Shown one piece after another: positions 1 to 29,824 of a stretch of 29,824 nt of DNA. This DNA comes from a virus (taxonomy: Duplodnaviria > Caudoviricetes). Below the pieces are notes generated by a model that was not told the origin of the DNA, ran no database searches, and saw only the letters and a list, made by a program, of their open reading frames with translations. Positions within the stretch are counted from its first letter, which is position 1; each line of letters begins with the position of its first letter. The position numbers and the translations under genes are program-made. Location: the IMG/VR virus record IMGVR_UViG_3300030329_001380, positions 1 to 29,824 of that record. One strand, written 5' to 3'.

Positions 1-972
1 GCTGATAGATTAACTGAAGCAGAAATAATAAGTCAATTTGGTGCAGCAGTATTAGTAGATGGTGGTGGTATTAATTGCAGACATAAATGGGAGATAGCAA
101 GTGAAGAAGGCACTAAATTCCATGAAGGCAAACAAGCACAGCAAGTAATACAGAACAAAATAGTTGCTCCTAAACCTAAAATACCAAAAGGATTTAATGT
201 CAAATATTCAGGTAGTGAAGCATCATTAAAGAAATCATTTAATGATAAAATAGATGATTTTTCTAAAGGTAAGACAGTTACATTGTATCATGGTTCAAAT
301 AGAAAATTTGATAAATTTAGAATTGCAAAGTCAAGGTCAGATGCAAATGCACAATTTCAAGGTGATGGAATATTTTTCACAACAGATAGAATGGTAGCAG
401 CAAAATATGCAACTGCATCAAGAAATGCAAATTTTGAATTTGGTATAATTAAAGAATTAAAAAGAAAAAATAAGAATGTAGGAGAAATAGCAGAAAGATT
501 GTATTACAAGGGAGATTCTATATGGCAAGATAAAGATACTTTAAGATTGGTAAATTTAGTTGAAGATAGTGGTGTAGATGCTAATGATATTGCAGATTTA
601 GTTGAATGGATAGCAGGTTCAAAAACAGAAATGTCAGGTGGAGGAGGAACTGCAATGACAATGTTTAGCAATTCTACATTATCTGTTCCAAATCATATAG
701 TAGAAATAGCAAGAAAATTTGGTGTTAAAAAAAATCTTTTAGAACCTACTATATATGAAGTAAAAGTAACTGGTAAAAATATATTGGTTACATCATCACA
801 ACAAAAAGCCAAATCTGCATTTAACAATGGATATGATGCTGTAATATATACAGGAAGTGGAACTGTTGATGATGTTGCTGAAATTATAATATATAATGAA
901 GATAATGTTAGTATATTAAACAAATCAATAATAGAGAGAGTTACAGTTGAAGAAGGTTGGGATGGTTTATAA
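1..972 (+). CDS. MuF/SPP1 gp7-like minor head protein with C-terminal ADP-ribosyltransferase-like domain (5' truncated by window)
   Basis: Frame 1 is open from base 1 (ADRLTEAEIISQFGAAVLVDGGGINCRHKW...), so the ORF-track start at 283 is internal. GGxNCRH at 61-84 is the typical end of MuF/minor-capsid domains. It is followed by LYHGS...GDGIFFT...AKYA...GYDAVIY...EIIIY, an H-Y-E (PARP/ART-PolyVal-like) pattern. Position after portal and before scaffold fits. Confidence 0.75.
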   Translation, partial: ADRLTEAEIISQFGAAVLVDGGGINCRHKWEIASEEGTKFHEGKQAQQVIQNKIVAPKPKIPKGFNVKYSGSEASLKKSFNDKIDDFSKGKTVTLYHGSNRKFDKFRIAKSRSDANAQFQGDGIFFTTDRMVAAKYATASRNANFEFGIIKELKRKNKNVGEIAERLYYKGDSIWQDKDTLRLVNLVEDSGVDANDIADLVEWIAGSKTEMSGGGGTAMTMFSNSTLSVPNHIVEIARKFGVKKNLLEPTIYEVKVTGKNILVTSSQQKAKSAFNNGYDAVIYTGSGTVDDVAEIIIYNEDNVSILNKSIIERVTVEEGWDGL

Positions 973-975
973 ATA

Positions 976-1128
976 ATGCTTGATGCTAAATTCTTTTTAA
1001 AAGTAGGTCCTAATGTTAGAGATTTATATAGAAAGCATATATTTACTGATGGAAAACATGACCACACAGAACCATTTAAAGGTGATAAAGGTATTAGATA
1101 TGAAGAAATAGAGGACACAGATGCTTAA
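976..1128 (+). CDS. 50-aa ORF, truncated paralog of the N-terminus of the next gene
   Basis: Translated by hand: MLDAKFFLKVGPNVRDLYRKHIFTDGKHDHTEPFKGDKGIRYEEIEDTDA*. Aligns with MLKNPDTFFRRLGANVRDRYRKHIFQDARDVFGKPFKG of 1121..1627. Confidence 0.6.
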   Translation: MLDAKFFLKVGPNVRDLYRKHIFTDGKHDHTEPFKGDKGIRYEEIEDTDA

Positions 1129-1627
1129 AAATCCTGATACATTTTTTAGAAGATTAGGTGCTAATGTAAGAGATAGATATAGAAAACATATCTTCCAAGA
1201 TGCTAGAGATGTATTTGGTAAACCATTTAAAGGGTATTCTACTTATGGTTCAAAATGGGTTACCATGAATGTTAAAAAATCTTTTAAAAAATCAGCACCT
1301 AAAGCAGGTTATTCATATAGTCAAGCAAAAAAAGGAAAAATGTTTCCAAGACAGGCAGACAAATATGCTAATAGCAAAGCACCTGTATTAACATCTGACT
1401 TATTAAGAGATTTTTCATTAGTAAGAACATCAGCAGGTGGCTTTGAAATAGGTTGGGTAACTCATGGTGCAAAGATTAAATGGTTAAAGAAAAGAGGTAG
1501 AGTGCTAACAGATTCTAAACAAGCATTTCCAAAAGGTATAGTTGAATACATGAGTAAAGAATTAACAAAACAATACAAAAAAGAAAACCCAAATAAAACT
1601 ACAATACATAACTTGGGTAAAAAATAA
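1121..1627 (+). CDS. Basic virion morphogenesis/neck-completion-like protein
   Basis: GAGGA RBS at 1111-1115. Lys/Arg-rich; the PVLTSDLLRDFS...FEIGW segment resembles the L-x-TG-x-L-x-x-S motif of Mu gpG/HK97 gp10-like proteins; lies in the head module. Confidence 0.45.
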   Translation: MLKNPDTFFRRLGANVRDRYRKHIFQDARDVFGKPFKGYSTYGSKWVTMNVKKSFKKSAPKAGYSYSQAKKGKMFPRQADKYANSKAPVLTSDLLRDFSLVRTSAGGFEIGWVTHGAKIKWLKKRGRVLTDSKQAFPKGIVEYMSKELTKQYKKENPNKTTIHNLGKK

Positions 1628-1629
1628 AT

Positions 1630-1666
1630 GTATTATTTTAATAAAAACAAATTATATTACACAAAA
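1630..1666 (+). promoter_or_regulatory. Putative promoter (TATATT -10-like box)
   Basis: AT-rich intergenic gap with TTATATTACACAAAA (1652-1666); near-identical TTATATTATACACAAAA at 8766-8782. Confidence 0.45.
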
Positions 1667-1701
1667 GATTTCTTAAACAATACTGACAAAACAGGAGATA
1701 A

Positions 1702-2277
1702 ATGATGGAAAAGGAAAGCACTCAAACTAACAATGAACAAACATTGTCAACAAATGACAGCACAGAAGCTGTTGATAAAAATGTACCTTATGATAGATTC
1801 TCTGAAGTAAATACTCAAAAGAATGATGCTTTAAAGCAAGTAGAATCTTTACAGGCTCAATTAGATAAAATGAATCAGGCAAATAAAACCAAGCAAGAAG
1901 AAGAACTTGCTAAACAAGGTGAATATAAACAGTTGCTTGATAATACTAAAAAAGAGTTAGAAGGATTTAAAACTAAAGCAGAACAATGGGATTCATATCA
2001 AACAAATAGAAGAACATCTTTAATGGAAAAATTGACAGATGATTCTGATAAAGATATAGCAGAAGGTTTGAGTTTAGATAAACTGGAAAAATATGTAGAT
2101 AAGGTTGTAGTTAAAAATGCTCCTTCAACTTCACAAGCTAGAGCAGGAAGTGCTAAAGCAGGTGATTTTGGTGGCTATGGTTCATATACAGAATGGGCAA
2201 CTAAAGACCCAAAAGGATATGAAGAAGCAAAGAAAACTTCTACTAATACAGGAATAACAATAGGTTGGAGTGACTAA
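1702..2277 (+). CDS. Capsid scaffolding protein
   Basis: ACAGGAG RBS; low-complexity acidic N-terminus, VPYDRFxEVN motif, long coiled coil; lies upstream of the major capsid gene. Confidence 0.75.
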   Translation: MMEKESTQTNNEQTLSTNDSTEAVDKNVPYDRFSEVNTQKNDALKQVESLQAQLDKMNQANKTKQEEELAKQGEYKQLLDNTKKELEGFKTKAEQWDSYQTNRRTSLMEKLTDDSDKDIAEGLSLDKLEKYVDKVVVKNAPSTSQARAGSAKAGDFGGYGSYTEWATKDPKGYEEAKKTSTNTGITIGWSD

Positions 2278-2518
2278 AAAACATTCAAAAATATTAGGTG
2301 TTGATTATGACCCAACTAATGATATGAAGTTGAAGCCTAAAGAAGATGGTGATGTTGATGTTGATTATAAAGGTGGAAAGATGACATTTGATGAATATAT
2401 TGATGAAATGGAATCTAGGACTACAAGGCATCAAGATGGAAAATCACTTACAACAAGTTCTTTGGGAGTATTTGCAGGGTTTGGTAAAGGAACATTAAAA
2501 AGACCTTATAAAGAATAA
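2270..2518 (+). CDS. Hypothetical protein (head module)
   Basis: GTG start overlapping the scaffold stop; 82 aa with phage-typical codon usage. Confidence 0.55.
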   Translation: MTKKHSKILGVDYDPTNDMKLKPKEDGDVDVDYKGGKMTFDEYIDEMESRTTRHQDGKSLTTSSLGVFAGFGKGTLKRPYKE

Positions 2519-2583
2519 TTAAACACTTTGAAAATGAAGGCTTTAAAGCAGTTGAAACAAAGTAAAATATATGAGGAAGTATT

Positions 2584-3504
2584 ATGGCAGATGCAGTAAG
2601 TGATACAGGTGCTAGTAGAGTAAAAGGTGGTTTAGGATTAATAGTAGGTGATGCAGTAGTAGCATTTAACAAATCAAATGTTATGCTACCATTAGTAACA
2701 TCTAAACAAGCAGTAAAAGGTGCAATCACAGTACAATTTGTAGATTATACAAAAATAGGTGCAAGTGATGTTGGTGCAGCAACAGATGGTAATGATTACA
2801 CAACAATGACATCTATTGATACTGCTGCAAGACAATGCACAGTTAGTGAGCATGTTATAAGAACAGATGTATCTGATTTAGCAGCAATGGGTAGTGCTGA
2901 AGATTATACAGGAAATGTTGGACAGGTTCTAGGTAATGCAGTAGCAGCTAAATTAGATGATGATTTAGTAGAGCTTGGAAAAGGTTTCTCACAAACAGAA
3001 TGTGGTGCTGGAAGCACTTTAGCATTATCACATTTGTTTGGTTCAATGAGGCAGTTAAGAGCAGCAGGTGGTCCATTCCCTTATAATTTGGTATTATCAC
3101 CAAAGCAGGTTTGGGGTTCTAAAGGCTTAATTGCTTTAACTAATAATACTGCTTTAGATACAGCAGGTTCATCTACAACTGATACTGCAACAGCAAGACC
3201 ACTTGGATTATTAGGTAATCAAGGTCAAGAAGCATTAAGTACAGGCTTTATTGGTTCAATAGCAGGTTTTGATTGTTATTGGTCAGACCAAATTGATGAA
3301 GATGTATCTTCAGGTGGTGATGCAGCAGGATTTGCATTTAGTAAAGGTGCAATAGGTTGTGCTGTTGGTCCACAAGGATTGATAAGAATAGAAACAGAAA
3401 GAAATGCTTCACACAGAACAACTGAATATGTTGCAACAGGGTTTTGGGGTGAGGTAGAAATACATGATGGATTTGGTGTATATATTCTATCTGATGTATC
3501 TTAA
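2584..3504 (+). CDS. Major capsid protein (HK97 fold)
   Basis: 306 aa, Ala/Gly-rich; GxAVAAKLDDDL spine-helix pattern and C-terminal RIETER...YVATGFWGEVEI strand pattern; follows scaffold, precedes a strong hairpin; GAGGA RBS. Confidence 0.85.
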   Translation: MADAVSDTGASRVKGGLGLIVGDAVVAFNKSNVMLPLVTSKQAVKGAITVQFVDYTKIGASDVGAATDGNDYTTMTSIDTAARQCTVSEHVIRTDVSDLAAMGSAEDYTGNVGQVLGNAVAAKLDDDLVELGKGFSQTECGAGSTLALSHLFGSMRQLRAAGGPFPYNLVLSPKQVWGSKGLIALTNNTALDTAGSSTTDTATARPLGLLGNQGQEALSTGFIGSIAGFDCYWSDQIDEDVSSGGDAAGFAFSKGAIGCAVGPQGLIRIETERNASHRTTEYVATGFWGEVEIHDGFGVYILSDVS

Positions 3505-3521
3505 TTAATAATAAGCAATGC

Positions 3522-3554
3522 AATAAGGGTGTAGGCAACTGCACCCTTATTATA
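3522..3554 (+). terminator. Stem-loop after capsid gene (terminator/stabiliser)
   Basis: AATAAGGGTGTAG-GCAA-CTGCACCCTTATT: 13-bp stem with one G-U pair and a GNRA loop; only a weak U-tail. Confidence 0.65.
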
Positions 3555-3566
3555 ACTGGAGAATAA

Positions 3567-3737
3567 ATGGAAAGATTTTTTAAAAAAGCAAGTGGTACAA
3601 TAATTAAAGTTCATAAGCATCATGACATAGAAAGTTTAAAAGCTAGATTTACTGAATGTGATGCACATGGAAAAGAGTTGGTAGTAGAAAAATCAAAGCC
3701 AAAAAAGAAGGCTGATAAAAAGAAGGCAGGTAAATAA
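3567..3737 (+). CDS. Small basic hypothetical protein (56 aa)
   Basis: Not in ORF track. GGAG RBS then MERFFKKASGTIIKVHKHHDIESLKARFTECDAHGKELVVEKSKPKKKADKKKAGK*; stop overlaps next ATG (TAATG). Confidence 0.65.
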   Translation: MERFFKKASGTIIKVHKHHDIESLKARFTECDAHGKELVVEKSKPKKKADKKKAGK

Positions 3738-3946
3738 TGGCAATAGTAGCAAAAAGTTTTATACATAATGATAATAAATTAGTTGGTGCTTCAGGTGATG
3801 CAGATGGCATTTTACCTGAAGATGTACAAGATTGGATTACTGCAAATGGTGGTACTGTTGATGGCACTTCTAATTTAAATGTAACTTGCTGTCCTTATGG
3901 CAATAACCAAATATTTACTCTTATTGTTATTGACAATAATGCTTAA
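3737..3946 (+). CDS. Hypothetical small protein (possible virion component)
   Basis: Translationally coupled to upstream ORF; 69 aa. Confidence 0.55.
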   Translation: MAIVAKSFIHNDNKLVGASGDADGILPEDVQDWITANGGTVDGTSNLNVTCCPYGNNQIFTLIVIDNNA

Positions 3947-3954
3947 TATTAATT

Positions 3955-4365
3955 ATGAACTATTTAATAGAACAAATTAAACAGCATGAAGGCTTTAGAG
4001 ATAAAGTATATAAATGCAAATTAGGATATGATACTATTGGCTATGGTTTTGCTATAAAGGATTTAGTATTAGATAAAGATATAGCAGAGCAAATACTAAT
4101 GAGAAAAGTATATGAGTTAGTTTGCAGAATACAAAATAAGTTTGATTGGTTTGATAAGCTACCACAAGAAGCACAAGATGTAGTAGCTAACATGTGTTAT
4201 CAATTAGGTGTTACAGGCTTTTCAAAGTTTAAAAAAACAATAGCATTATTAAAGGCACATAAGTTTAAAAAAGCAAGTGTTGAAATGCTAGATAGTAAAT
4301 GGGCTTTGCAAACTCCTAATAGAGCAGAAGAATTAAGCCACATATTAAGGAATTTAGGTGAATAA
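3955..4365 (+). CDS. Endolysin, GH24 (T4-type) lysozyme
   Basis: HEG...YKC...GYDTIGYG gives an E-x8-C-x5-T catalytic triad; also NMCYQLG, EMLDSKWAxQTPNRA. Confidence 0.92.
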   Translation: MNYLIEQIKQHEGFRDKVYKCKLGYDTIGYGFAIKDLVLDKDIAEQILMRKVYELVCRIQNKFDWFDKLPQEAQDVVANMCYQLGVTGFSKFKKTIALLKAHKFKKASVEMLDSKWALQTPNRAEELSHILRNLGE

Positions 4366-4555
4366 AAAGGTTGATGAATATAGAGATAGTGTAATTACAC
4401 ATCTTGAGTATTTGAGGGAAAAAATAGATAAGGTGGAAAAGCATTTAGATAGGTTAAATGGCAGAGTGAGAACCAATGAAAGAAATATATACTGGATATT
4501 TGGTTTAGGTGTTGGCATTACTTCCTTACTATCAACTTTTATTTATCTTAAATAG
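4358..4555 (+). CDS. Small membrane protein, XhlA/holin-like (coiled coil plus C-terminal TM helix)
   Basis: IDKVEKHLDRLNGRVRTNE coiled coil followed by hydrophobic WIFGLGVGITSLLSTFIYL; overlaps endolysin stop. Confidence 0.55.
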   Translation: MNKKVDEYRDSVITHLEYLREKIDKVEKHLDRLNGRVRTNERNIYWIFGLGVGITSLLSTFIYLK

Positions 4556-5740
4556 ATGTATTGTCCAACATGTTATTCAGGCAATTTAATTAAATGTGGT
4601 TGGGATAGTGGTAAGCAAAGGTATCAATGCAAAAAATGCAAACATAAAAGTGCTTTTCCTATTGAAGATATTGGGCTAATAAAAGAGAATGTAAAGTTAG
4701 CAAAGCAGAAACAGAACTACCAAGATTTAAATAGGATAGAAAGAAAAGCATTTAGAGAGCATGTAAGAGTTGAAAATGCTGTTGCAAGATACTCTGAAAA
4801 GTTGTTAAAGATTTTTGAAAGATATAAATTAAGTGAACTTACAATAAAGCATAAAGAAGATTCAAGTGCAGTAGGTGTAATACAATTTAGTGATGTGCAT
4901 TTTAATGAACTTGTTAATCTTGAACACAATAAATATGATTTTAGTATTGCTTCAGCTAGATGCAAACACTTTGTAACTAAAGCAATTAAATATTTTAAGG
5001 CTTTTGGAATAACAAATGTTCTTATGGTGCAATCAGGAGATTTACTTAATTCAGATAGAAGGTTAGATGAACTTTTATCTATGGCTACAAATAGAGCAAA
5101 GGCTACATTTCTAGCAGTTGATATTATGCAACAGGTAATACTTCACTTAAATAAAGAATTTAATGTATCTGTTTGTATGGTAACAGGAAATGAAAGCAGA
5201 GTTAAAAAAGATTGGGGTTGGTCACCCATGATAGCATCAGACAATTATGACTATACTATATTTCAAACATTAAGATACATTTTTAAAGATTCAACTATAA
5301 ATTTTATAGATGGTGACCCTACTGAAGTTGTAGTAGAAGTTGCAGGACAAAATTTATTAGTGTTACATGGCAATGGTGCAATTAAAAGAACAGGTATAGA
5401 ATCATCTATTAATCAAATGATTGGTAGATACAAGATGAGAGGTACAAAAATAGATTATGTTATATTTGGACATGTACATTCAGCAAGAGTTGGTGATAAT
5501 TATTCAAGGAGTAGTAGCATGGTAGGTGCAAATGATTATAGTGAAAAGGCATTAAATCTAGCAGGTAGAGCATCACAGAATTGCTATATATTTTATAAGA
5601 ATGGCAATAGAGATGGGATTAAAATTGATTTACAAAACTATACAACTGGTTATGATATTGACAAATCACTTGAATCCTATAATGCTAAGTCAAGTGATAA
5701 GATTAATAATGGAACAACTATATTTAAGGTAGTAGTATGA
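4556..5740 (+). CDS. Calcineurin-like metallophosphoesterase with N-terminal Zn ribbon
   Basis: Motifs SDVH, GDLLN, GNE (usually GNH), LHG, GHVH; N-terminal CxxC...CxxC ribbon followed by a coiled coil. Confidence 0.8.
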   Translation: MYCPTCYSGNLIKCGWDSGKQRYQCKKCKHKSAFPIEDIGLIKENVKLAKQKQNYQDLNRIERKAFREHVRVENAVARYSEKLLKIFERYKLSELTIKHKEDSSAVGVIQFSDVHFNELVNLEHNKYDFSIASARCKHFVTKAIKYFKAFGITNVLMVQSGDLLNSDRRLDELLSMATNRAKATFLAVDIMQQVILHLNKEFNVSVCMVTGNESRVKKDWGWSPMIASDNYDYTIFQTLRYIFKDSTINFIDGDPTEVVVEVAGQNLLVLHGNGAIKRTGIESSINQMIGRYKMRGTKIDYVIFGHVHSARVGDNYSRSSSMVGANDYSEKALNLAGRASQNCYIFYKNGNRDGIKIDLQNYTTGYDIDKSLESYNAKSSDKINNGTTIFKVVV

Positions 5741-6438
5741 AAATTGGTGATAAATTACTGAAATTAGGCTATATTAATAAAAAGCAATTAACAAGTGCCT
5801 TAAAGAAACAATCTAAAGAAAAAATACTATATAATAAAGATTTACAGCTAGGTAAGATTTTATTAGATAAAGAATTTTTAAGTTTAGATGAATTAACAGA
5901 AGCATTGAGTACAACTATTGAAGAAGAAGTTAAAGAAGTTAAACAGGAGGTGGCTATGCCAACAGAAATAGGTGAGGGAAGCAAGTTTACATTTGATTTA
6001 AAGTTTATAATAACTATTGGTGCTGTATTAGTATCAGGTGCAGGTATTTATTTTACTATGGAAAATAGTATTAATGATTTAAAGTCAGCAGATAGTCCTA
6101 GTAGATTAGAATACAATGTTTTATTAAATGAAATAACAAGTATTAAGAATGCAGGTAATTTAGATGTTATTACATATAAGTTAGAAGAATATGATGATAC
6201 ATTTAAAGAATTAAAATCTTTATCATCTACATTAACACCTTTAGCATCTGATTTAGATTACTTAAAAAAAGAAATAAATAATTTAAAGAATAAAGAAATT
6301 GAAATACCTGTTGTAGATTTATCTAGTTTAGAAAATAAAATACTAGAGTTATCCACAACTGTTAATAACATGTCAACAACTATAAATGAATACAAAGATA
6401 AAGTAGATAAACTAGAGAAAGTGGAGGGCAGATTTTAA
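5737..6438 (+). CDS. Membrane protein: N-terminal MshEN-like motif, single TM helix, C-terminal coiled coil; probable second start at 5956
   Basis: KIGxxLLxxGYIxxxxLxxxLxxQ matches the 24-residue MshEN consensus, with a degenerate second copy. TM helix FIITIGAVLVSGAGIYF; heptad-rich C-terminus; AGGAGGT at 5945-5951 before in-frame ATG 5956. Confidence 0.7.
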   Translation: MKIGDKLLKLGYINKKQLTSALKKQSKEKILYNKDLQLGKILLDKEFLSLDELTEALSTTIEEEVKEVKQEVAMPTEIGEGSKFTFDLKFIITIGAVLVSGAGIYFTMENSINDLKSADSPSRLEYNVLLNEITSIKNAGNLDVITYKLEEYDDTFKELKSLSSTLTPLASDLDYLKKEINNLKNKEIEIPVVDLSSLENKILELSTTVNNMSTTINEYKDKVDKLEKVEGRF

Positions 6439-7530
6439 ATGAAGGACTTTATAAATGAACAAGCATCAAAAAGAGGATTGGTTGGAATTATTTGCCTTAT
6501 GGTTGGATATGGCAGTTTTATTTATGGTGGCTTTATTAGTAATTCAACTTTGTATTTTGGGTTACAATCTAATACAGCTATTGTTGAAGGATATGATGAT
6601 AATTTAGATAATGATTTTAGATACAATATAGGATTAAGGAAGATTGCATTATTTCCTTATCAAGATAGAAGTGATTTTTATAAAGGTGATGAAAATGAAT
6701 TAAGTGATAATGCAATACTAGGTGCTGTTAATAATTGGGAATATCTATTTAATTTTAGCAGTTCTAGGAATCAAGGAATAGAATTTATTGACCAAGAATA
6801 TTGGTTAAAGTGGAGCAATAATTGGTTTGTAACAAAAGCCAAATATATTAATAAAGAAAGTAGAGATTTAGAGTTTTTTGATTTTGATACTAGGTTTAGA
6901 TTAAACCTAAATAAAGTTAATTTTACAGTAGGTGGTGCTATTAAAATGCACCCTACTTATGGTCACCCACCAATAGAAGATTATTTTGGAACATGGTGGG
7001 AGTTGGCTTATGAATATGGATATACAGATTTCATGATACCCTTGCATGATTTAAATGATAATGGCATTATAGATGATTACTATGTATGGATAGAAACAGA
7101 CCCTGTAACAGAAGAAGGTTACTGGATTTATTACTATGAAGGAATTAATTATTATTGGGAGAATCCTGATGGACAATATGTAGCAGGAAGTGATGAAGAA
7201 TTTTACCAATATCATTATCCACATGTAGTACACATGTACAATGAAGATAATAAAATAGAAGAATGGCAGGGTGAAGCTGCAATAGTTGTAGGTATTGATG
7301 TATTACTTGGGAATGAAAATTATTATTCTCATATTTGGATTAATGCTTTTCCTGAAACTGTTGGTTTGACAGATAAGGCATATACAGGAAATGACATGCA
7401 ATATGATTTGGGAGCATTGATTGGTGCAAAATTATCAAATCATGTTGGGGTGTTCTTGGAGGGTAGTTACCTAAACTATTATGGAAAAAATGAATACACA
7501 TTAGAAACAGGTATTAATTATAAATTCTAA
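6439..7530 (+). CDS. Putative outer-membrane beta-barrel protein
   Basis: Hydrophobic N-terminal signal-like stretch; many alternating aromatic beta-strands; ends YTLETGINYKF (beta-signal with terminal Phe); acidic/aromatic loop with DLNDNGIID. Confidence 0.7.
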   Translation: MKDFINEQASKRGLVGIICLMVGYGSFIYGGFISNSTLYFGLQSNTAIVEGYDDNLDNDFRYNIGLRKIALFPYQDRSDFYKGDENELSDNAILGAVNNWEYLFNFSSSRNQGIEFIDQEYWLKWSNNWFVTKAKYINKESRDLEFFDFDTRFRLNLNKVNFTVGGAIKMHPTYGHPPIEDYFGTWWELAYEYGYTDFMIPLHDLNDNGIIDDYYVWIETDPVTEEGYWIYYYEGINYYWENPDGQYVAGSDEEFYQYHYPHVVHMYNEDNKIEEWQGEAAIVVGIDVLLGNENYYSHIWINAFPETVGLTDKAYTGNDMQYDLGALIGAKLSNHVGVFLEGSYLNYYGKNEYTLETGINYKF

Positions 7531-7721
7531 TGGCTGTTGATAAGGACATATTAAAGTTAAAAAAAGAAATTAAAGAACTCAAAAAAGATTTACAATCTAT
7601 AAAGAAAGAGTTTCAGATTGTAAGTGTGAGTAATCAAGAAATGAAAGCATTTTTTGAGAATATATATGAAATTACAACAATAATCAATGAGGAGAATGAC
7701 AATGACAGAATGGCTAATTAA
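7530..7721 (+). CDS. Small coiled-coil hypothetical protein
   Basis: Coupled TAATG start; heptad pattern. Confidence 0.55.
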   Translation: MAVDKDILKLKKEIKELKKDLQSIKKEFQIVSVSNQEMKAFFENIYEITTIINEENDNDRMAN

Positions 7722-7854
7722 TAACTGGGAATATGCTTTAGTGGGTTTTTATGCACTAGAAAAAATAGTTTTATTATCACCTACTAAATATGATGATATG
7801 CTATGGAGCATGTTTGTTAAACCTATGTTTAATAAGTTATCAGGAAAGAAGTAG
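7702..7854 (+). CDS. Small membrane protein, holin-like (50 aa)
   Basis: Not in ORF track. GAGGAG RBS at 7689-7694; MTEWLINNWEYALVGFYALEKIVLLSPTKYDDMLWSMFVKPMFNKLSGKK* is amphipathic/hydrophobic with a PTKxDD turn and basic tail. Confidence 0.6.
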   Translation: MTEWLINNWEYALVGFYALEKIVLLSPTKYDDMLWSMFVKPMFNKLSGKK

Positions 7855-7855
7855 A

Positions 7856-8737: not shown

Positions 8738-8744
8738 AAATATG

Positions 8745-8782
8745 TTTATAAAAAGAAATATTATGTTATATTATACACAAAA
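8745..8782 (+). promoter_or_regulatory. Putative extended -10 promoter
   Basis: TG-N-TATATT at 8764-8772 in an AT-rich intergenic gap; shares TTATATTA..CACAAAA with 1652-1666. Confidence 0.45.
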
Positions 8783-8797
8783 TAAAGGCTTAATTTT

Positions 8798-9586: not shown

Positions 9587-9593
9587 GAGAAAT

Positions 9594-11279: not shown

Positions 11280-11289
11280 GGAGTAATAG

Positions 11290-12704: not shown

Positions 12705-12713
12705 AGGAGGAGC

Positions 12714-12911
12714 ATGAAGATTAAAGCTAGAAATGAAAAACTTAATAATTTTAATGTTATGAATGTGCCTTGTTCATCAAGGGAATTTTCTGATTTGAGA
12801 GATGGCAAAGAAATTATTTTAGAAGAAAAAGTAGCAAACAAGATGTTGGCTATGGGATTGGTAAAAAAAGTAAATACAAAACAAACTAAAAAAGGAAAAG
12901 GAGATAAATAA
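12714..12911 (+). CDS. Small basic hypothetical protein
   Basis: AGGAGG RBS; 65 aa; Lys-rich tail. Confidence 0.6.
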   Translation: MKIKARNEKLNNFNVMNVPCSSREFSDLRDGKEIILEEKVANKMLAMGLVKKVNTKQTKKGKGDK

Positions 12912-13999
12912 TGGCTATAAGTCAAACAGTTATTCCTATTAGTGATGTTAAATTGGGTATCAAAGGTGAATCAGCATTTGGAACATTATTAGATAGTGAT
13001 GGAACAAATACAACTGCATTTAGGCAGCTACCTGTTGTCCAAGCAACAAAGCCAACATTTAATATTACAAGGGAATCAAGATTATTAAGTGGTAGAGGAA
13101 CAGTTAAAAATGCAGCAGATACAATAATAACAAATAAAAATGGTACTGTAACATGTCCATTTGATTTTATTGCTACACCTGAATTATTATTACAGCATTT
13201 AGTTTTAGTAACACAAACTTATAATGCAGATGGTTCTAATGTTTATACAGTAGAAGTAGATGGTTCAAACAATAATACACATATTGGTGGTGCTATTTCA
13301 AGTGGGTTGCCACATTCAGTAAACCTAGCATATTTTCCTGCTGCTTCACAAGGAATCTGTGTGCCAGGTTGTGTTGTTTCAGATATGGCAATTAGTGCTG
13401 ACTATGGAACTAATGGTGGAAATCTATCTATAAGTGGAAACTATTATAGTGGCTTTTCTAATCTAGTTGCATCAGCAACAGGTAGCAAATTAGAAGATAA
13501 TTTTACTGGAACTTGGGTTGAACCTGATGCAGGAGTATTTTTTAATCTAGGCAGTTTAAGTACAAAGCAATTAGAGGTTGATGGTGAAAATCAAGATATG
13601 ATTGTAAAAGGCTTTAATTTAAATATTGCTAATGGTGTAAACAGGGTTGGTTCTAATAGTGAGGGTGGTGCAGAAGCCTATGCTTTCCCTGAATATACAG
13701 TAACAGGTGATATTACAATTAAATATGATACTGAATTTGGTTTAGCAGCAGCAACTAATGTAGTGCAATCATTTATGGATGGCAATACTTGTACACTTGC
13801 ATTAAAATTTGGTGATGGTACTGTATCTAGTGTAAGTGAAATGAATATACTTGCAGAAGTACAATATACAGGTGACCCTACACAAGATATTAGTGAAAGT
13901 GGAATATTTTGGACAATACCTTTTGAGTGTGTTCAAAATAGTTCTACTGAAGCACTTAAAATATCATTGTTTAGTGATACTGCTATTGCTTCAATGTAA
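12911..13999 (+). CDS. Major tail (tube) protein
   Basis: 362 aa, beta-rich; KLGIKGESAFG N-terminus and FNLNIANG...VTGDITIKYD pattern; followed by chaperone pair and tape measure. Confidence 0.8.
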   Translation: MAISQTVIPISDVKLGIKGESAFGTLLDSDGTNTTAFRQLPVVQATKPTFNITRESRLLSGRGTVKNAADTIITNKNGTVTCPFDFIATPELLLQHLVLVTQTYNADGSNVYTVEVDGSNNNTHIGGAISSGLPHSVNLAYFPAASQGICVPGCVVSDMAISADYGTNGGNLSISGNYYSGFSNLVASATGSKLEDNFTGTWVEPDAGVFFNLGSLSTKQLEVDGENQDMIVKGFNLNIANGVNRVGSNSEGGAEAYAFPEYTVTGDITIKYDTEFGLAAATNVVQSFMDGNTCTLALKFGDGTVSSVSEMNILAEVQYTGDPTQDISESGIFWTIPFECVQNSSTEALKISLFSDTAIASM

Positions 14000-14067: not shown

Positions 14068-14079
14068 GAGGATAAGGAT

Positions 14080-14334: not shown

Positions 14335-14747
14335 AAAAAATAATTTTTGACATCAATATATGGGTGTCAATCAAAGGTTTAAAGAATGAAGGTTATAATG
14401 GGTTTGATTATCCATATCAAGGCTTGTGTCCTGTAACTGGTAAGCCTAAAACCTTTAATACTATTGAGGATGTATATGAACAATTATTATTATGCAATCA
14501 AGAGTTAGAGGATAAAAAAATTACTAATGTATCAGAAACATTATATATTGAACATTTTATGTTTTGTAATACAGAACAACTTATTGACAAAAAAATACAA
14601 ACAAGAATAAAAGAGTATAATTTCTGTAAAAGTTTTAGTTGTCCTCCATATCCTTCCTTAAAAGAAACACCTGCTAAAGTTATAGATGACTTTTTAGAAA
14701 TTGAAAGTATAATGAATAGAATAAAATTAGAAACAAGGAAAGAATAA
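14331..14747 (+). CDS. Tail assembly chaperone frameshift extension (gpT-like part of gpGT)
   Basis: In the -1 frame relative to 14080; no RBS before GTG 14364; stop overlaps the tape measure ATG. Confidence 0.7.
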   Translation: MEKIIFDINIWVSIKGLKNEGYNGFDYPYQGLCPVTGKPKTFNTIEDVYEQLLLCNQELEDKKITNVSETLYIEHFMFCNTEQLIDKKIQTRIKEYNFCKSFSCPPYPSLKETPAKVIDDFLEIESIMNRIKLETRKE

Positions 14748-16885
14748 TGACTACTTCAAAAAACACTCAAATAATAGAAGCAAAAACCAAAGGATTTAAT
14801 AAAGCTAAACAAAATATTAAAGGTGTTAATAAATCTTTAGGTGGAATGGCTAAACAAGCAGCTTTAGCAGCAGCAGCTATGTGGGGTGCTAAAAAATTAT
14901 TAGATGGTATGAAGGCTTCAATTAATTTAGCAGCAGAACAAGAATTAGCAGAAAAGAAACTAGAAGCAGCATTAGGTGGTGTTAGTAAAGAATTAAAGCA
15001 ATATGCCAGAGAATTACAACAAGTATCAAGATTTGGTGATGAAGTTACTTTAGGTGCTATGGCTATGATTGCTTCATTTGTAAAAGATGAAAAAGCAATT
15101 AAAATGGCAACAAAAGCAAGTATGGATTTAGCAGCAGCTAAAGGCATGGATTTAGTAGCAGCAGCAGATTTAGTATCTAAATCTTTAGGTTCATCTACAA
15201 ATGCTTTATCAAGATATGGTATTGAAGTAACAGGTGCAGTAGGCTCTACTGAAAGATTAGAATCATTAACAAATAATTTAGCAGCAGTTTTTGGTGGACA
15301 GGCACAAGAACAAGCAAACACCTATACAGGACAAATTGACCAAATGAATAATGCAATAGGTGATTTAGGAGAAGCTATTGGTGATAAACTTTTACCATTT
15401 TTAGAAAAAGCTGCTAATCTTGTTAAATGGACTGCTGAAAAACTAACAGCTCTGGTGGAAAATGCAAGAGCAGCAGGAGATGCTATTTGGGAGTTTTTTG
15501 GTGTAGAGGTAGCAAAAGAAGTAGAGGATAGGATTAATAATGCAAGTGGTGCATTTAGAAAAGTAACAGAAACAATATCAACTGGTTCTCAAAAAATTAG
15601 AAGTGAAGGGCAATTAAATATAAACAAATTTAATCTATTAGTTGATGCTTTGAAAGAAGTAGTAAAAGAAGAAGGCAATAGAAGTGTTATTATAAACAAA
15701 ATAAAATCTGAATATGGCACTTATTTAGGAAATATAAATTTAGAAAAAGCCACATTAGAACAAATAGCAGCATTCCAAAAAGATATAACTAATCAAATGA
15801 CAACAAGATTAAGAGTACAAGTTGGTGAAGAAGAAATTTTAGAAGTAATGAGAGAAGAACAAAAACTAATAAAAGAGATAAATAAGTTGAAAGGGGAGAT
15901 ACATTTAAAAGAGTTAGCAAATTCAATAATAAGAGGTGACAATCTTGACTTTGAGTTGTATCTAAATCAAAAGCAAATTAATGAATTAATAAAAAATGAA
16001 GATAAGATAAAAGATTTAAATTATCAAATTGAACAAAAAAATCTGAAGATTGATGCTAATAGAAACAAACAAAAACTATTAATACATCAATTATCAGAAC
16101 TTGGAATAGAATTTGACAATTTAGAAAGTTCAATAGAAGGTGCAGGAATAAGTTTAGCAGACCTAACTTATAAAGCAATGGGTGGTGCAGACCAATTTAA
16201 AGAACTTCTTGCAACACAAAGAGATTTAAGAGATAGTTTTATAGAAGAAGCAGAAGGAGAATCAACACTAGAAGACCAACTACAAGCATATATGGATTTT
16301 TATGAAACTAGAAATGAATTAGTAGAAATATCAGAACAAGAACATGCTGATATAATTGCACATTATCAAGGACAAATTAGTGATAGAAACAAAGATGAAA
16401 TAAAACAAAGAGTTAGTGATACTGTTGCAGGATTGGATGAAATTGGAAACCAATTTAAAGCATTTAAGAAAGTAGCACAGGCAGCAGCAATAGCAGAAAC
16501 AATATATTCTACTTATTATGCAGCACAAGAAGCATATACAAATTGGATAGAAAGCAAATTACCAATAGACCCTGCAACAAAACAAGCACTAGGTGTTGCA
16601 AATGCAGCATTAGCAGTTGGTCAAGGTATGGCTAGAGTAAACCAAATAAGAAAAGCAGCAGTAGGTGCAGATTATATAGCAGATGAGCCACAATTACTAA
16701 TGGTTGGTGAACAAGGATTAAGAGAAAGAGTACAAGTAACACCTTTAGATGGTGTAAATATAGAAGGTGGAACACAAGGAATAACATTAAATATTCAAGG
16801 CAATGTATTAACAGATTCATTTGTTGAAGAATCAATAGTGCCAAGTTTAAGAGAAGCATTAAGACAGGGAGAGGTACTTGCTTAA
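14747..16885 (+). CDS. Tape measure protein
   Basis: 712 aa, Ala-rich helical; LSRYGI and GQIDQMNNAIGDLGEAIGDKLLP TMP motifs; C-terminal LMVGE...ERVQVTPL motif. Confidence 0.88.
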   Translation: MTTSKNTQIIEAKTKGFNKAKQNIKGVNKSLGGMAKQAALAAAAMWGAKKLLDGMKASINLAAEQELAEKKLEAALGGVSKELKQYARELQQVSRFGDEVTLGAMAMIASFVKDEKAIKMATKASMDLAAAKGMDLVAAADLVSKSLGSSTNALSRYGIEVTGAVGSTERLESLTNNLAAVFGGQAQEQANTYTGQIDQMNNAIGDLGEAIGDKLLPFLEKAANLVKWTAEKLTALVENARAAGDAIWEFFGVEVAKEVEDRINNASGAFRKVTETISTGSQKIRSEGQLNINKFNLLVDALKEVVKEEGNRSVIINKIKSEYGTYLGNINLEKATLEQIAAFQKDITNQMTTRLRVQVGEEEILEVMREEQKLIKEINKLKGEIHLKELANSIIRGDNLDFELYLNQKQINELIKNEDKIKDLNYQIEQKNLKIDANRNKQKLLIHQLSELGIEFDNLESSIEGAGISLADLTYKAMGGADQFKELLATQRDLRDSFIEEAEGESTLEDQLQAYMDFYETRNELVEISEQEHADIIAHYQGQISDRNKDEIKQRVSDTVAGLDEIGNQFKAFKKVAQAAAIAETIYSTYYAAQEAYTNWIESKLPIDPATKQALGVANAALAVGQGMARVNQIRKAAVGADYIADEPQLLMVGEQGLRERVQVTPLDGVNIEGGTQGITLNIQGNVLTDSFVEESIVPSLREALRQGEVLA

Positions 16886-24608: not shown

Positions 24609-24613
24609 GAGGA

Positions 24614-26274: not shown

Positions 26275-26325
26275 GGTGTTTTTCATAAGCCCACACTACT
26301 TATGTTTCTCCCACATCCTACCCAT
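26267..26325 (+). ncRNA. Putative structured RNA with exposed anti-SD sequence
   Basis: 13-bp outer stem ATGGGTAGGGTGT/ACATCCTACCCAT (one G-U), inner CATAAG/CTTATG stem; 26299-26311 is the exact reverse complement of 23230-23242. Confidence 0.5.
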
Positions 26326-26331
26326 AATATT

Positions 26332-26745
26332 ATGAAGATAAGATTTGTAATAAAAGGAGAACCAATAGCACAAAAAAGGCATAGGCATCACAGATTTGGT
26401 GTTTATGACCCTTCATCCAAAGACAAAACATACATATCAACAGTTATTCACTCCCACATCCCACAAGTCAAGTTGAAGGGTGCTATTGTTCTCCACATAG
26501 ATTTTTATTGTAAAAGACCTAAATACCACTTTGGTACTGGAAAGAATAAAGATAAAATTAAAAAGAAATATCAAAACATATACAAACTAACAAAACCTGA
26601 TATAGATAATTATATTAAGTTCTACATGGATTGCTTCAATGATAAAATATGGGAAGATGATTCACAGGTTATTAATATTAGTTCAAGTAAAAGATATAGT
26701 AATTCAGAGCCTAAAACAGAAGTACACATATACCAATTAAATTAG
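26332..26745 (+). CDS. rusA: RusA-family Holliday junction resolvase
   Basis: FVIKGEP, KPDIDNYIKFYMD and WEDDSQV motifs; start more likely ATG 26332 than 26302. Confidence 0.9.
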   Translation: MKIRFVIKGEPIAQKRHRHHRFGVYDPSSKDKTYISTVIHSHIPQVKLKGAIVLHIDFYCKRPKYHFGTGKNKDKIKKKYQNIYKLTKPDIDNYIKFYMDCFNDKIWEDDSQVINISSSKRYSNSEPKTEVHIYQLN

Positions 26746-26753
26746 GGTAAAGT

Positions 26754-27362
26754 ATGATTGATTTAATATTAGATGATTGTATGAATGTTATGAAAAAGTA
26801 TGATGATAATCATTTTGATTTGGCTATTGTAGACCCACCTTATGGATTAAAGAGATTTAACAATTTAAATGGTAGTTGTAGTAAATTTGCTACAAAAAAA
26901 CTACAAAAATGGAACAAAAAACCAACATCACAATATTTTGATGAATTATTTAGGGTAAGTAAAAAACAAATTATATGGGGTGCAAATAATTTTGATTTAC
27001 CAACATCAGAATATTTTATTGTGTGGAAGAAAAGTAACAAATTAAATTTTAGTTTTGCTATGGTGGAACAGGCTTGGACTAACATCAGAAAACCTGCTAA
27101 AATATTTACACATTATGAAGAAGCAGATAGAAAACATAGAATACACCCAACTCAAAAACCTGTAAAGCTATATAAATGGATATTACAAAACTATGCTGAA
27201 AAAGGACAGAAGATATTAGATACTCATTTAGGTTCAGGTTCAATAGCAGTTGCTTGTTATTATGCAGGTGTAGATTTAGTAGGCATTGAAATAGATGAAA
27301 AATATTACAATAAGGCTAAAGAAAGAATAGATAAACTAACTTTACAGAATACATTATTTTAA
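26754..27362 (+). CDS. Orphan DNA amino-methyltransferase (N6-A/N4-C, beta class)
   Basis: DPPY (motif IV) near N-terminus, HPTQKP, then LDTHLGSGS (motif I) and GIEID. Confidence 0.9.
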   Translation: MIDLILDDCMNVMKKYDDNHFDLAIVDPPYGLKRFNNLNGSCSKFATKKLQKWNKKPTSQYFDELFRVSKKQIIWGANNFDLPTSEYFIVWKKSNKLNFSFAMVEQAWTNIRKPAKIFTHYEEADRKHRIHPTQKPVKLYKWILQNYAEKGQKILDTHLGSGSIAVACYYAGVDLVGIEIDEKYYNKAKERIDKLTLQNTLF

Positions 27363-27403
27363 ATTAGTTATTTTTTATTTCACAAAATATTCTATATTAT
27401 GTT

Positions 27404-27760
27404 GTGGAAAAGAACACTAAAAAGACACAAAAGAAACAAAAAATTAATAAAAAAGAAATATTTTTAAAGTGTTTCCAACAAAAGTTGTGCCACATATCTA
27501 AAGCATGTGATGCAGCTAACATTTCAAGAAAGACTTATTATAGATGGATTGAAGATGATGAGTTTAAAGACCAAGTAGAAGCAGCTAAAGAAGGTTTGAT
27601 AGACCATGTAGAGCATCAGTTGCTACAAAAGATAGATAGTGGTGATACTACTGCTATTATATTTTTCTTAAAAACAAGAGCAAAAGAAAGAGGATATGTT
27701 GAGAAGCAAGAGATAACATTAAGTAAACCTATTGAGGATATAACCTTTGATGAAATCTAA
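27404..27760 (+). CDS. terS: Terminase small subunit
   Basis: HTH (ISKACDAANISRKTYYRW), GDTTAIIFFLKTRAKERGYVE; directly upstream of TerL. Confidence 0.8.
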   Translation: MEKNTKKTQKKQKINKKEIFLKCFQQKLCHISKACDAANISRKTYYRWIEDDEFKDQVEAAKEGLIDHVEHQLLQKIDSGDTTAIIFFLKTRAKERGYVEKQEITLSKPIEDITFDEI

Positions 27761-29018
27761 TGTAATGACATTAAAGAAAGAGAATTACTTTCCTAGCCAA
27801 TGGGAATTTCTAACTAATAAAAAGAAGATTAGCTGTTATACTGGTGGCTTTGGTTCAGGAAAAACTCATAGCCTACTAGCAAAGGTTTTTTATTGCCTTA
27901 TTACAAAGAAGAATAAAGATGGTAAATCAAATGGGTTGATATTATATCCTACTTATTCATTAGCAGAAGAAGTATTTGTAGAACCATTTAGAGAAATACT
28001 AGAAAGAAATGGAATTGATTATGATTACAATATAGCTAATCACAGATTTAAAACTGCTTATGGAAACATTAAGATATATCAAACAAGGCATCCTCAAAGA
28101 ATTGTAGGTAGTTCATATACTTATGTAGGTATTGATGAACTTGATATTGAATCATATAAGTATGCAGAGATGGCTGTACAAAAAGCATTAGGTAGGTTAA
28201 GAGGTTGTGAAGATGCTGAACTATTTATAACAACTACTCCTGAAGGCTTTGGCTATACATATCATTTTATGGTAGAACAATCTTCAGATAATAAATTATT
28301 GGTATATGGTAAAACTACTGATAATCCTTATCTGCCTAAATCATATATAGAATCATTAAAAGAGAATTATGATGAGCAATTATTAAAAGCCTACATTGAT
28401 GGCAGATTTGTAAATTTAAATCAAAAAGGAACTTATTATGGATTTGACAGAACTAATGCAGTCAGAGAATGCAAATACAACAGAAGCCTACCAATCAGAA
28501 TTGGAATGGACTGGAATGTTGACCCTTTATGTGCAGCCATATTTCAAATCTACCCAAACAAGCAAATTAAAGTTATTAAAGAATTGGCATTATCCCATCA
28601 AGGTACAGGTGATTTAATGACACAAAGGATGTGTGATACTATAAGGGATTTATATCCTAATAATAAATATATTGCTTATCCTGATGCAACAGGTGCTGCT
28701 AGGCATAGTTCAGCACAATATTCAGATATAGATATAGTAAGAGCAAATGGGTTTCAAGTATTAGTTAAGCATATTAATCCAAGAGTAGTTAATAGGGTTA
28801 ATGCTATGAATAACCAACTATCAAAGAACAATATAATTATAGACCCAAGTTGTAGATTACTAATAAAAGATTTAGAGCAAGTGTGTAATAAAGAGGGTAC
28901 AAGAGATATAGACAAATCAAATAAAGAACTATCACACATGAGTGATGCTTTAGGGTATGGGATAGAATGGGAATATCCAACTAAAAGACCTAACAGAATA
29001 GGAGTAACAGACAGATGA
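27747..29018 (+). CDS. terL: Terminase large subunit
   Basis: Walker A GGFGSGKT, Walker B YVGIDE, coupling motif TTTP, RNaseH-like GMDWN...HMSDALGY. Confidence 0.95.
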   Translation: MMKSNVMTLKKENYFPSQWEFLTNKKKISCYTGGFGSGKTHSLLAKVFYCLITKKNKDGKSNGLILYPTYSLAEEVFVEPFREILERNGIDYDYNIANHRFKTAYGNIKIYQTRHPQRIVGSSYTYVGIDELDIESYKYAEMAVQKALGRLRGCEDAELFITTTPEGFGYTYHFMVEQSSDNKLLVYGKTTDNPYLPKSYIESLKENYDEQLLKAYIDGRFVNLNQKGTYYGFDRTNAVRECKYNRSLPIRIGMDWNVDPLCAAIFQIYPNKQIKVIKELALSHQGTGDLMTQRMCDTIRDLYPNNKYIAYPDATGAARHSSAQYSDIDIVRANGFQVLVKHINPRVVNRVNAMNNQLSKNNIIIDPSCRLLIKDLEQVCNKEGTRDIDKSNKELSHMSDALGYGIEWEYPTKRPNRIGVTDR

Positions 29019-29824
29019 TACCAAATTTAGGAGAACTTGCTGTTTTAATGTCAAGATGGGATGCTAATCAGCAAAGAAAAAACAAATGGAAGCAAACAAG
29101 ATATGAAGCACTTGATTACTATAATGGCAAAACAAAAGAATATGTACAGGATTATTTTAGTTCATCAATGCTTGACAAGATAGTAACAGGCAATGTTAAT
29201 ATAACTAAAAGAATTATAGATAGAATTAGTTTAGTATATATGGTTTCTCCTAAAAGATTATACACTAAAGATGATATACATTTATCCTTCCATGAAAAAG
29301 ATATGAAGCTACAAAGATTAGAAAGAATGACTAACCTAATTGATGGTGTTTTATTTAAACCTTGTTACAGATACAATGATAACAATGAAGGCTTTATTGA
29401 ATATGATATTATATTTGATTATGAGCCTATATTTCATGGTGATGACCCTATGAAGCCTGATGCTTATGTTTATCCTATTAACATGAAATCATCAGTAATG
29501 ACAGATGATGTAGAAAGATTTGCATATTGGGATAAAGACAATCACTTTATATTTGATAGAAATAGCAAGATATACTCTAATGAAGATAATCCTGAAATGG
29601 TTAATCCTTATGGTGTAATACCATTAATAGAATCATACAGGGATGGTAAACCTGAATACAGTTACATGGACACAGATGCTAGTATAGATTTAATACAAAC
29701 TAATCTATCTATTAATGTAGCAGAAACAAATAAAAATGCTAATGTAATGTTTCAATCATTTGGGTATATGTATGTTAATGGAGCAGGAGTAGATAAAGAT
29801 GTAATGGAAGTAGGACAGGATAAG
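29015..29824 (+). CDS. Portal protein, SPP1-like (3' truncated)
   Basis: Not in ORF track. ATGA overlap with TerL; open to window end: MIPNLGELAV...LDYYNG...NITKRIIDRISLVY...NPYGVIPLI. Confidence 0.85.
   Translation, partial: MIPNLGELAVLMSRWDANQQRKNKWKQTRYEALDYYNGKTKEYVQDYFSSSMLDKIVTGNVNITKRIIDRISLVYMVSPKRLYTKDDIHLSFHEKDMKLQRLERMTNLIDGVLFKPCYRYNDNNEGFIEYDIIFDYEPIFHGDDPMKPDAYVYPINMKSSVMTDDVERFAYWDKDNHFIFDRNSKIYSNEDNPEMVNPYGVIPLIESYRDGKPEYSYMDTDASIDLIQTNLSINVAETNKNANVMFQSFGYMYVNGAGVDKDVMEVGQDK

Follow-up and report, generated by a model that had tools for sequence, protein, structure and literature searches.

Why does the genome of a tailed phage contain no CG dinucleotide? The window, by which we mean the whole stretch of 29,824 bases analysed here, had been described as CG-free in an earlier note, and exact counting bears this out: CG is found 0 times on both strands, where base composition predicts 634.6. 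GC, CC and GG are common, as also described, with 907 (O/E 1.43), 441 (O/E 1.11) and 1,129 (O/E 1.11) occurrences, respectively. The 37 ORFs (9,182 codons) harbour no CGN codon, no NCG codon and no C|G codon junction, and their 301 Arg codons are AGA (240) or AGG (61), in agreement with the codon usage reported by that note. The codon-shuffled null that it proposed yielded 153.6 +/- 10 junction CGs (200 shuffles, minimum 127), against 0 in the window. The 2,368 bases outside the ORFs, which take in two cut-off gene ends, are similarly devoid of CG (46 expected). Two independently deposited contigs, L132 and L133, share 99.9% identity with the window and are CG-free too, and therefore the absence of CG is not an assembly artefact. 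Stop codons comprise 27 TAA, 6 TAG and 4 TGA, and the scan of positions 1-15000 revealed 10 terminator-like hairpins versus 4.6 +/- 2.3 in shuffles. Our literature search found no earlier published account of CG-free phages.

Table 1. Features of the window, with the evidence for each assignment.
Feature	Coordinates	Strand	Evidence
Near-complete tailed phage genome	1..29824	.	virus record, CheckV 98% complete, linear
ART-PolyVal (ADP-ribosyltransferase-like) domain protein	283..972	+	PF18760 E 4.5e-8, above cut-off
Major capsid protein, family marker	2584..3504	+	phrog_544 E 5.5e-5
Phage lysozyme (endolysin)	3955..4365	+	PF00959 E 3e-10; phrog_7 endolysin
Zinc ribbon + metallophosphoesterase (exonuclease-like)	4556..5740	+	phrog_284 E 7.6e-58
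N-terminal MshE-type c-di-GMP-binding-like motif	5737..6438	+	NF053729 E 1.1e-8, 34.7 bits, cut-off 38 not reached
Predicted outer-membrane beta-barrel protein	6439..7530	+	structure model, pLDDT 63
Tail tube protein	12911..13999	+	PF18906 E 1.3e-7
Tape measure protein	14747..16885	+	phrog_27166 E 3.8e-6
Probable tail protein, 1,364 aa	16878..20972	+	assigned by position
RusA Holliday-junction resolvase	26302..26745	+	PF05866 E 1.5e-23
N6/N4-type DNA methyltransferase	26754..27362	+	PF01555 E 2e-18
Terminase large subunit	27747..29018	+	PF03237 E 6.8e-12; phrog_2

The gene content supports a walled, probably diderm and non-Mollicute host, as the earlier note had proposed. The lysozyme implies a peptidoglycan-walled host, and the predicted beta-barrel protein points to a diderm one; in Foldseek, its model best matches porins, among them NanC (E 4.9e-4, 7% identity), and its closest named Atlas clusters are Phage_OMP, autotransporter and OmpG. 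The lysozyme, the four TGA stops, the porin-like fold and the marine runs all argue against a Mollicute. The capsid protein shares 30-33% identity with four pelagiphage capsids and with that of phage DSL-LC06. The pelagiphages HTVC111P, 112P, 026P and 202P, with genomes of 31-32 kb, are its closest cultured capsid relatives, and identity at this level gives no basis for assigning a SAR11 host. The probable tail protein has a weak dockerin-like C-terminus (PF00404 E 7.4e-4, below cut-off), and a Marinimicrobia host, presumed from this end and from the GC content, is a guess on our part. The GTDB genome contigs, scanned with the capsid and again with an alignment of the porin-like protein, yielded no relative, and neither lists of protein homologues nor cluster look-ups named an organism. 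The zinc ribbon/metallophosphoesterase protein was the query that retrieved 80 metagenome relatives (80 of 99 loci kept), all on contigs of at most 37 kb, and therefore no host flank was seen. Neither a host nor a nuclease nor a matching methyltransferase was found in the GTDB contig and metagenome scans.

Loss of CG may reflect selection, as the earlier note argued, or cytosine decay, and the Arg codons, the substitutions between relatives and the silent sites support the former. CGN accounts for 0 of 301 Arg codons against 87 expected under a crude neutral codon model, whereas in relatives with 29-35% GC and CG O/E ratios of 0.4-0.6 it makes up 15-31% of the aligned Arg codons. In L134, which is 89.8% identical to the window over 4,115 nt, T>C changes before A, C or T are found at 98 of 1,964 positions, but before G at 0 of 401, where 20 were expected; silent changes that would create CG are missing between close relatives. 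Among the variant places of four runs, 0 of the 40 listed of ~2,130 create CG, but these are too few and too mixed with relatives to carry weight. As many pairwise comparisons among relatives are not independent, the pooled expectation for T/C differences before G in CG-free pairs, 757, is inflated, and we do not rely on it.

Erosion of CG to TG/CA by methylation and deamination without any selection is highly improbable. The TG/CA excess that the earlier note suggested looking for does exist, as the strand-symmetric CA/TG ratio is 1.27 when redistribution alone gives 1.18, and 147 of 213 CG sites are opposite TG or CA in CG-free partners. However, CT/AG climbs as much as CA/TG as CG falls (slopes -0.22 and -0.15, 51 records), and transitions are not in excess among the changes at CG sites (72% versus 68% in the background, unpolarised and from non-independent pairs). 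In addition, deamination cannot convert CGN Arg codons to AGR and so cannot empty the CGN box, and with 336 CGs expected at silent transition sites of the window, decay alone would require CG sites to be over 112-fold hypermutable, counting only the window. The N6/N4-type enzyme is the sole methyltransferase detected in the virus record, which has no match to the C5 methyltransferase signature PF00145 (the control matched in 9 of 14 genomes). A CpG methyltransferase combined with deamination, as the earlier note envisaged, thus fails as the sole cause.

Least probable of all is a physical or translational constraint, such as DNA packaging, UV lesions or a missing tRNA for CGN. This marine genome is AT-rich, and the accessible text of PMC11282364 links bacterial CG depletion to DNA structure and temperature, but relatives of equal GC content whose capsids are homologous have O/E ratios of 0.4-0.6, junctions, NCG codons and non-coding DNA are all affected, and the dipyrimidine context TCG is the one that persists longest in relatives.

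Related phages, to which the earlier note proposed extending the analysis, display the same state repeatedly. Fifteen of the 118 sequence clusters of the family, including that of the window, are CG-free and none is mixed; the CG-free clusters total 227,698 nt, with 0 CG against 5,144 expected. They are scattered across the capsid tree (29 rows), on which 7 changes are required to place the 9 CG-free rows, with starred branches forcing at least 4 of them, and monophyly of these rows is rejected (AU p 5e-56). The CG O/E ratios of the relatives form a continuum from 0.004 to 1.2, with a separate spike at zero. Partial purges were also found. RCGY is purged in 5 of 91 representatives, including L193 (0 versus 83 expected) and G036 (0 versus 107 expected), and VCGB in 5 of 114, including L272, which has 1 VCGB of 213 expected versus 120 of 284 for TCG-containing contexts. 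Both types of purges leave sites that fit on one strand only; L193 retains 51 ACGG, 80 ACGA, 30 CCGC and 37 GCGA. Other single purges among the 91 representatives concern SCGS (8), MCGK (2) and YCGR (1), and WCGW and KCGM purges were found in 0 of 91. Some relatives display asymmetric gaps: L032 also lacks ACGA, L225 lacks CCGA, and in L048/L049 GCGA is the sole CG context kept.

The one-strand matches bear on the idea that CG is read by a lethal but non-cutting defence, for example a CpG-specific double-strand DNA deaminase, which we consider very unlikely. Bacterial enzymes of this specificity exist in vitro (bioRxiv 10.1101/2023.06.29.547047), but the words 'defense' and 'restriction' are absent from the accessible text of that report. 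Moreover, a one-strand reader would spare TCGA only, whereas relatives spare ACGA, CCGA and GCGA, and the expected excess of transitions is absent.

Restriction has also left its mark on the window. Of the 302 non-CG restriction sites that could be tested there, 31 reach no more than 10% of expectation, and restriction pressure is therefore strong. Words at zero include GATC, GGCC, CTRYAG, CCNNGG, GGNNCC and GASTC, as well as the 6-bp words AAGCTT, ATGCAT, CAATTG, CATATG, CTGCAG, GAATTC, GATATC, TCTAGA and CTCTTC, and CTNAG, CASTG and CCWGG occur once each. The earlier note had overlooked the zero counts of GATC, GGCC, CTRYAG, CCNNGG, GGNNCC and many 6-bp palindromes. AT-only palindromes are untouched. 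Near-elimination of palindromic sites by silent change, the hallmark of avoidance of type II restriction-modification, is thus found here.

A stack of known CG-containing restriction-modification sites, also put forward in the earlier note, fails as the sole cause, since stacking all 601 listed sites leaves 8% of the CGs. Realistic stacks (10-16% draws of the listed sites) leave 48-53% of them, with 137 of 519 as the lowest value (500 draws, 16%); about half is the level of many CG-bearing relatives. Undescribed short CG-core sites, such as RCGY, YCGR, SCGS, WCGW, MCGK and KCGM, or words of three bases, for example ACG, might instead jointly cover the 16 NCGN contexts with no single CG reader. 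The six 4-base words cover every NCGN by construction, four of them are purged singly in relatives, and L048/L049 retain GCGA only; nevertheless, each of the 15 clusters would have to be exposed to all six, and no representative is purged of WCGW or KCGM. We deem this explanation distinctly unlikely.

The reading that we favour, tentatively and at slightly less than an even chance, is that the genome owes its lack of CG to a restriction-like nuclease that is carried by its hosts and reads CG. The Biopython restriction list (1,088 enzymes) has no entry for CG, RCGY or VCGB, and the proposed enzyme is therefore hypothetical. It would act on unmethylated double-stranded DNA and cut it at CG, flanking bases mattering little or not at all, and a matching host methyltransferase would protect the host DNA. 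CG itself is inherently symmetric; the reader may be two-fold symmetric (type IIP-like) with relaxed flanks, and the host nucleases could form a nested symmetric series, RCGY, VCGB and CG, with CG as its fully relaxed end. The phage, which appears to encode no detectable DNA polymerase or base-modification enzymes, would pass between strains with differing restriction sets and escape by losing sites, as for many classic restriction sites. The absence of CG at every codon position and outside genes, and its recurrence across the family, speak for the proposal. The varying partial patterns of L032, L048/L049 and L225 speak against it, as several stacked short sites could explain them, the continuum of CG O/E ratios among relatives does so too, and RCGY is the known target of GlaI (PMC7604892), which fits prior methylation equally well. 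An undescribed CG-directed defence, as the earlier note had suggested, is, we infer, the best remaining reading, although neither its host nor its enzyme was found in our scans.

Its main competitor, which we hold to be rather unlikely, involves marking before cutting. An orphan host CG methyltransferase (M.SssI/M.MpeI-like or DNMT3-like) would mark the progeny phage DNA, and other strains would cut 5mC DNA with type IV/IIM enzymes (GlaI-, PsuGI- or Mrr-like), so that zero CG would mean no mark. It requires known enzyme types only, and a DNMT3-like methyltransferase does circulate in the phage family. The RCGY purged in 5 of 91 relatives is the GlaI site; VCGB and full CG match no methyl-directed site that we have seen. 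Nevertheless, CG methylation should show up as an excess of transitions, which is not seen. In the accessible part of PMC6286503, type IV sites differ only slightly, and the CG methyltransferases named in the accessible literature are Mollicute enzymes. C5 methyltransferases were searched in 50 of the records. The DNMT3-like gene is carried by the CG-free G044, L080, L286 and L290, but it was not found in the visible slot of the window and of seven other CG-free loci, and it is also present in family members with O/E ratios of 0.47-0.61 and in unrelated phages with ratios up to 1.66. As a phage-encoded cause of CG loss, this gene is thus neither needed nor sufficient, and we rejected it. The single provirus among the methyltransferase loci, L246, lacks the capsid of this family.

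Known systems offer partial parallels. CviJI and CviKI-1, of chlorella-virus origin, recognize RGCY, one of the shortest list entries (a degenerate palindrome of 6 bits), and illustrate that very short sites are restrictable, but their core is GC, which is over-represented in the window, and not CG. CpG under-representation in Mycoplasma penetrans is attributed to deamination; it concerns the chromosome of a Mollicute, whereas here CG is at zero in a phage whose host is walled, and transitions are not in excess. M.SssI and M.MpeI systems combine CG depletion with a prokaryotic enzyme that recognizes bare CG, as proposed here; both are CG methyltransferases according to the accessible text of PMC5944983. 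The text of PMC11282364, as far as available, describes CpG as under-represented in M. penetrans and bacterial defence systems as not known to prefer CpG as a target; its supplement gives an 'O/E CpG' of 1.14 for M. penetrans, in contradiction with the text, and its table was therefore not used. GlaI, a methyl-dependent nuclease with the site R(5mC)GY (PMC7604892, accessible part), and PsuGI, with the site BB5mCGD (PMC12707154, whose accessible part also cites an E. coli activity against CG-modified DNA), share a CG core with degenerate flanks, and the GlaI site is the word purged in five relatives; however, both need prior methylation and neither covers every NCGN.

Type II site avoidance is comparable in its near-complete, silent removal of palindromes. 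According to the accessible text of PMC6286503 (Rusinov et al. 2018), it is orthodox type II sites alone that are subject to common avoidance, which is most complete among non-temperate phages, and the window phage has no detected integrase; here, in contrast, the purged word is only 2 bp long and is missing from the enzyme list. That text contains neither 'CpG' nor 'dinucleotide'. The sequencing method of PMC8919816 detects 5mC poorly, and its accessible part therefore gives no evidence for or against marine CG methylation. PMC4752239 mentions CpG in its references only, and PMC5890265, in its accessible part, concerns eukaryotic DNMT3.

Somewhat more tentatively still, marine bacteria may possess an undescribed restriction family built around a CG core whose flanks can be tuned (RCGY, VCGB, CG), the bare-CG member of which would be a two-base enzyme. 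If so, restriction sites could be as short as two bases, below the limit known so far, and a CG-cutting or CG-sensing enzyme would become available for methylome work. A phage family whose whole genomes switch among an ordinary state and states free of RCGY, of VCGB or of all CG would be a natural readout of CG-directed defence, whose purge patterns would predict defence specificities ahead of enzyme discovery and could serve host prediction for uncultured phages. Such a defence would parallel, in bacteria, the use of CpG to tell self from non-self, and would be powerful enough to strip every CG from whole phage genomes repeatedly.

Across all 29,824 bases the window has not one CG dinucleotide, where 634.6 would be expected; two further contigs 99.9% identical to it also have none. 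All eight CG-containing codons are unused in the 37 ORFs (9,182 codons), C|G codon junctions in these ORFs number 0 against 153.6 ± 10 in 200 synonymous shuffles, and the 2,368 bases outside the ORFs lack the 46 CGs expected. GC, CC and GG occur at least as often as expected. The earlier note's description of a CG-free genome, with NCG codons and C|G junctions unused and GC, CC and GG common, was thus accurate.

Silent transition sites alone account for 336 expected CGs, and a mutational cause, which we consider very unlikely, would therefore require >112-fold hypermutability. None of the 301 Arg codons is CGN (87 expected under a simple neutral model), 42 of 98 conserved Arg sites carry CGN in one or more relatives, and CGN-to-AGR changes cannot arise by deamination. 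In stretches sharing 85% identity or more, CGs of CG-bearing relatives face a transition in 147 of 213 cases, a single transversion in 56 and a double change in 10; transitions make up 72% of single changes at CG versus 68% at other C/G positions, in unpolarised, non-independent pairs. Comparison with L134, a related locus with 89.8% identity across 4,115 bases, shows T>C changes at 98 of the 1,964 sites followed by A, C or T; the 401 sites followed by G show none, against 20 expected. As judged from these sequence comparisons, CG loss behaves like selection, not decay, as the note had proposed; its alternative of methylation followed by deamination fails as sole cause on the required hypermutability, the Arg codons and the near-background transitions. 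The TG/CA excess that it suggested looking for is present and mild (CA/TG 1.27 versus 1.18), but CT/AG rises equally in 51 low-GC records. Action of a CpG deaminase or similar reader is improbable, and physical causes are the least likely of all.

We calibrated the absence against stacked restriction sites in recoded nulls. With six classic four-base CG sites excluded, 66% of CGs remain; when a random 10-16% of the other sites is excluded as well, 48-53% remain, resembling relatives G006, G008 and G036 (O/E 0.46-0.52) and G041 (0.38). Even all 601 sites together (at least about 7 bits, from an incomplete Biopython copy, methyl-dependent enzymes being dropped) spare 8%, which counts against the note's option of stacked CG-containing R-M sites; known sites are, on these simulations, insufficient. 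A stack of undescribed short sites seems unlikely. The phage faces strong restriction pressure: of 302 testable CG-less sites, 31 are reduced to 10% of the null or less and a further 16 to 35% or less. The CG purge resembles restriction-site avoidance in its working and differs in that the avoided word is no listed site.

Relatives were collected through the capsid (65 loci), terminase (20), tail tube (10), phosphoesterase (80 of 99 loci) and a methyltransferase (80 of 349, of which 26 with shared genes entered the family set). After removal of loci that duplicated a contig already included, 197 records formed 118 clusters at 93% identity, 15 of them CG-free and none mixed. Together the representatives of the CG-free clusters span 227,698 bases, in which 5,144 CGs would be expected; G044 (31.4 kb), G042 and G048 are CG-free across the entire record. 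Many CG-free members retain GATC, and the two purges are therefore independent. GATC-rich relatives (G041 at L081, L012, L075; 88-130 sites) exist beside GATC-free ones, and CATG is wholly purged in G041 (0/110) and G038 (0/121).

On a capsid tree of 29 rows, two records with divergent capsids being omitted, the nine CG-free rows require seven changes, at least four of them forced by well-supported branches; seven changes were matched by 161 of 500 shuffles. A single CG-free clade, chosen after the first tree was seen, is rejected (AU p 5e-56). Because the genomes are mosaic, the tree indicates that the CG-free state was repeatedly gained or lost, or that genes were exchanged and then purged; it does not reveal the direction of change. 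In L020, L021 and L058-L065, capsid matches span 1,120-1,380 bases versus the usual about 900 and several are split into pieces, which suggests insertions such as inteins or introns.

A phage C5 methyltransferase moves through the family. Its best PDB matches are eukaryotic DNMT3C/3A/3B (DNMT3C, E 2e-25, versus 1e-7 for M.HhaI), and its relatives occur on 349 viral contigs. Across 80 carriers CG O/E ranges from 0 to 1.66; as a cause of CG absence the enzyme is neither necessary nor sufficient.

Features of the window and of related loci
Feature	Location	Strand	Remarks
DNMT3-like C5 methyltransferase	L113:926-1924	-	record G044
DNMT3-like C5 methyltransferase	L102:1491-2510	-	
DNMT3-like C5 methyltransferase	loci L212-L290		
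ART-PolyVal domain gene	window:283-972		precedes head genes; homologue absent from first 94 loci
MshE-type c-di-GMP-motif gene adjoining predicted outer-membrane beta-barrel gene	window:5737-7530		patchy across family; Atlas clusters virus-only
Weak dockerin type I match	window:20643-20969		C-terminus of 1,364-aa protein; E 7.4e-4, below cut-off

Some relatives have purged only part of the CG contexts. RCGY is purged in 5 of 91 representatives (observed/expected 0/83 in L193, 0/107 in G036 (L126+L127), 0/26 in G038, 4/68 in G023 and 0/18 in L032), and L193 retains ACGG, ACGA, CCGC and GCGA, which carry RCG on one strand only. The purge is clean in L193, G036, G038 and G023, with remaining CG contexts retained. 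Five of 114 representatives (L272, L032, L051, L094, L225) have purged VCGB and kept TCG-containing contexts, with 1/213 versus 120/284 in L272. Twelve near-zero representatives leak mainly ACGA and GCGA (98 of 157). Exceptions are L032, where ACGA is also missing, and L048/L049, where GCGA is the sole context left. Six loci (L148, L166, L167, L170, L172, L174) have low CG overall (O/E 0.05-0.12), with CCG/CGG contexts nearly all gone and ACG and GCG contexts leaking.

Taken at sequence level, these patterns appear to need a fit on both strands, which would be how a symmetric dimer reads DNA, by analogy with type IIP enzymes. We tentatively favour, at somewhat under even chances, a host-encoded symmetric nuclease that would cut phage DNA at unmethylated CG, with a methyltransferase shielding host DNA; in a series running from RCGY through VCGB to CG, this bare-CG reader would be the most relaxed member. 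The main rival, in which one strain methylates CG and the next cuts methylated DNA, is possible though rather doubtful; one partial state, RCGY, coincides with the GlaI site R(5mC)GY, and the Biopython list holds no enzyme for unmethylated RCGY.

The window is 98% complete according to CheckV on the virus record. It encodes terminase, capsid, tail tube, tape measure, lysozyme, RusA, an N6/N4 methyltransferase and an ART-PolyVal protein; integrase, DNA polymerase, base-modification enzyme and C5 methyltransferase were not detected in it. A contig of 31,878 bases with the same replication-type protein suggests that about 2 kb may be missing from the record. All 20 window-bearing runs, of 24 listed, are marine, and the closest cultured capsids are those of pelagiphages (30-33% identity). 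A probable walled diderm host, in agreement with the note, is indicated by the lysozyme, by four TGA stops and by a porin-like model of low confidence (pLDDT 63), whose best match is NanC (E 4.9e-4). Searches of GTDB genome contigs with the capsid and porin-like protein, and of metagenome loci with the phosphoesterase, yielded no host.

Full-text literature searches, their coverage leaving out most subscription journals, turned up no published account of phage genomes free of CG or of a restriction enzyme that cuts at CG. The window adds the calibrated test of CG absence against stacked restriction sites, the nested RCGY and VCGB states, and a phage family whose CG-free state switches.
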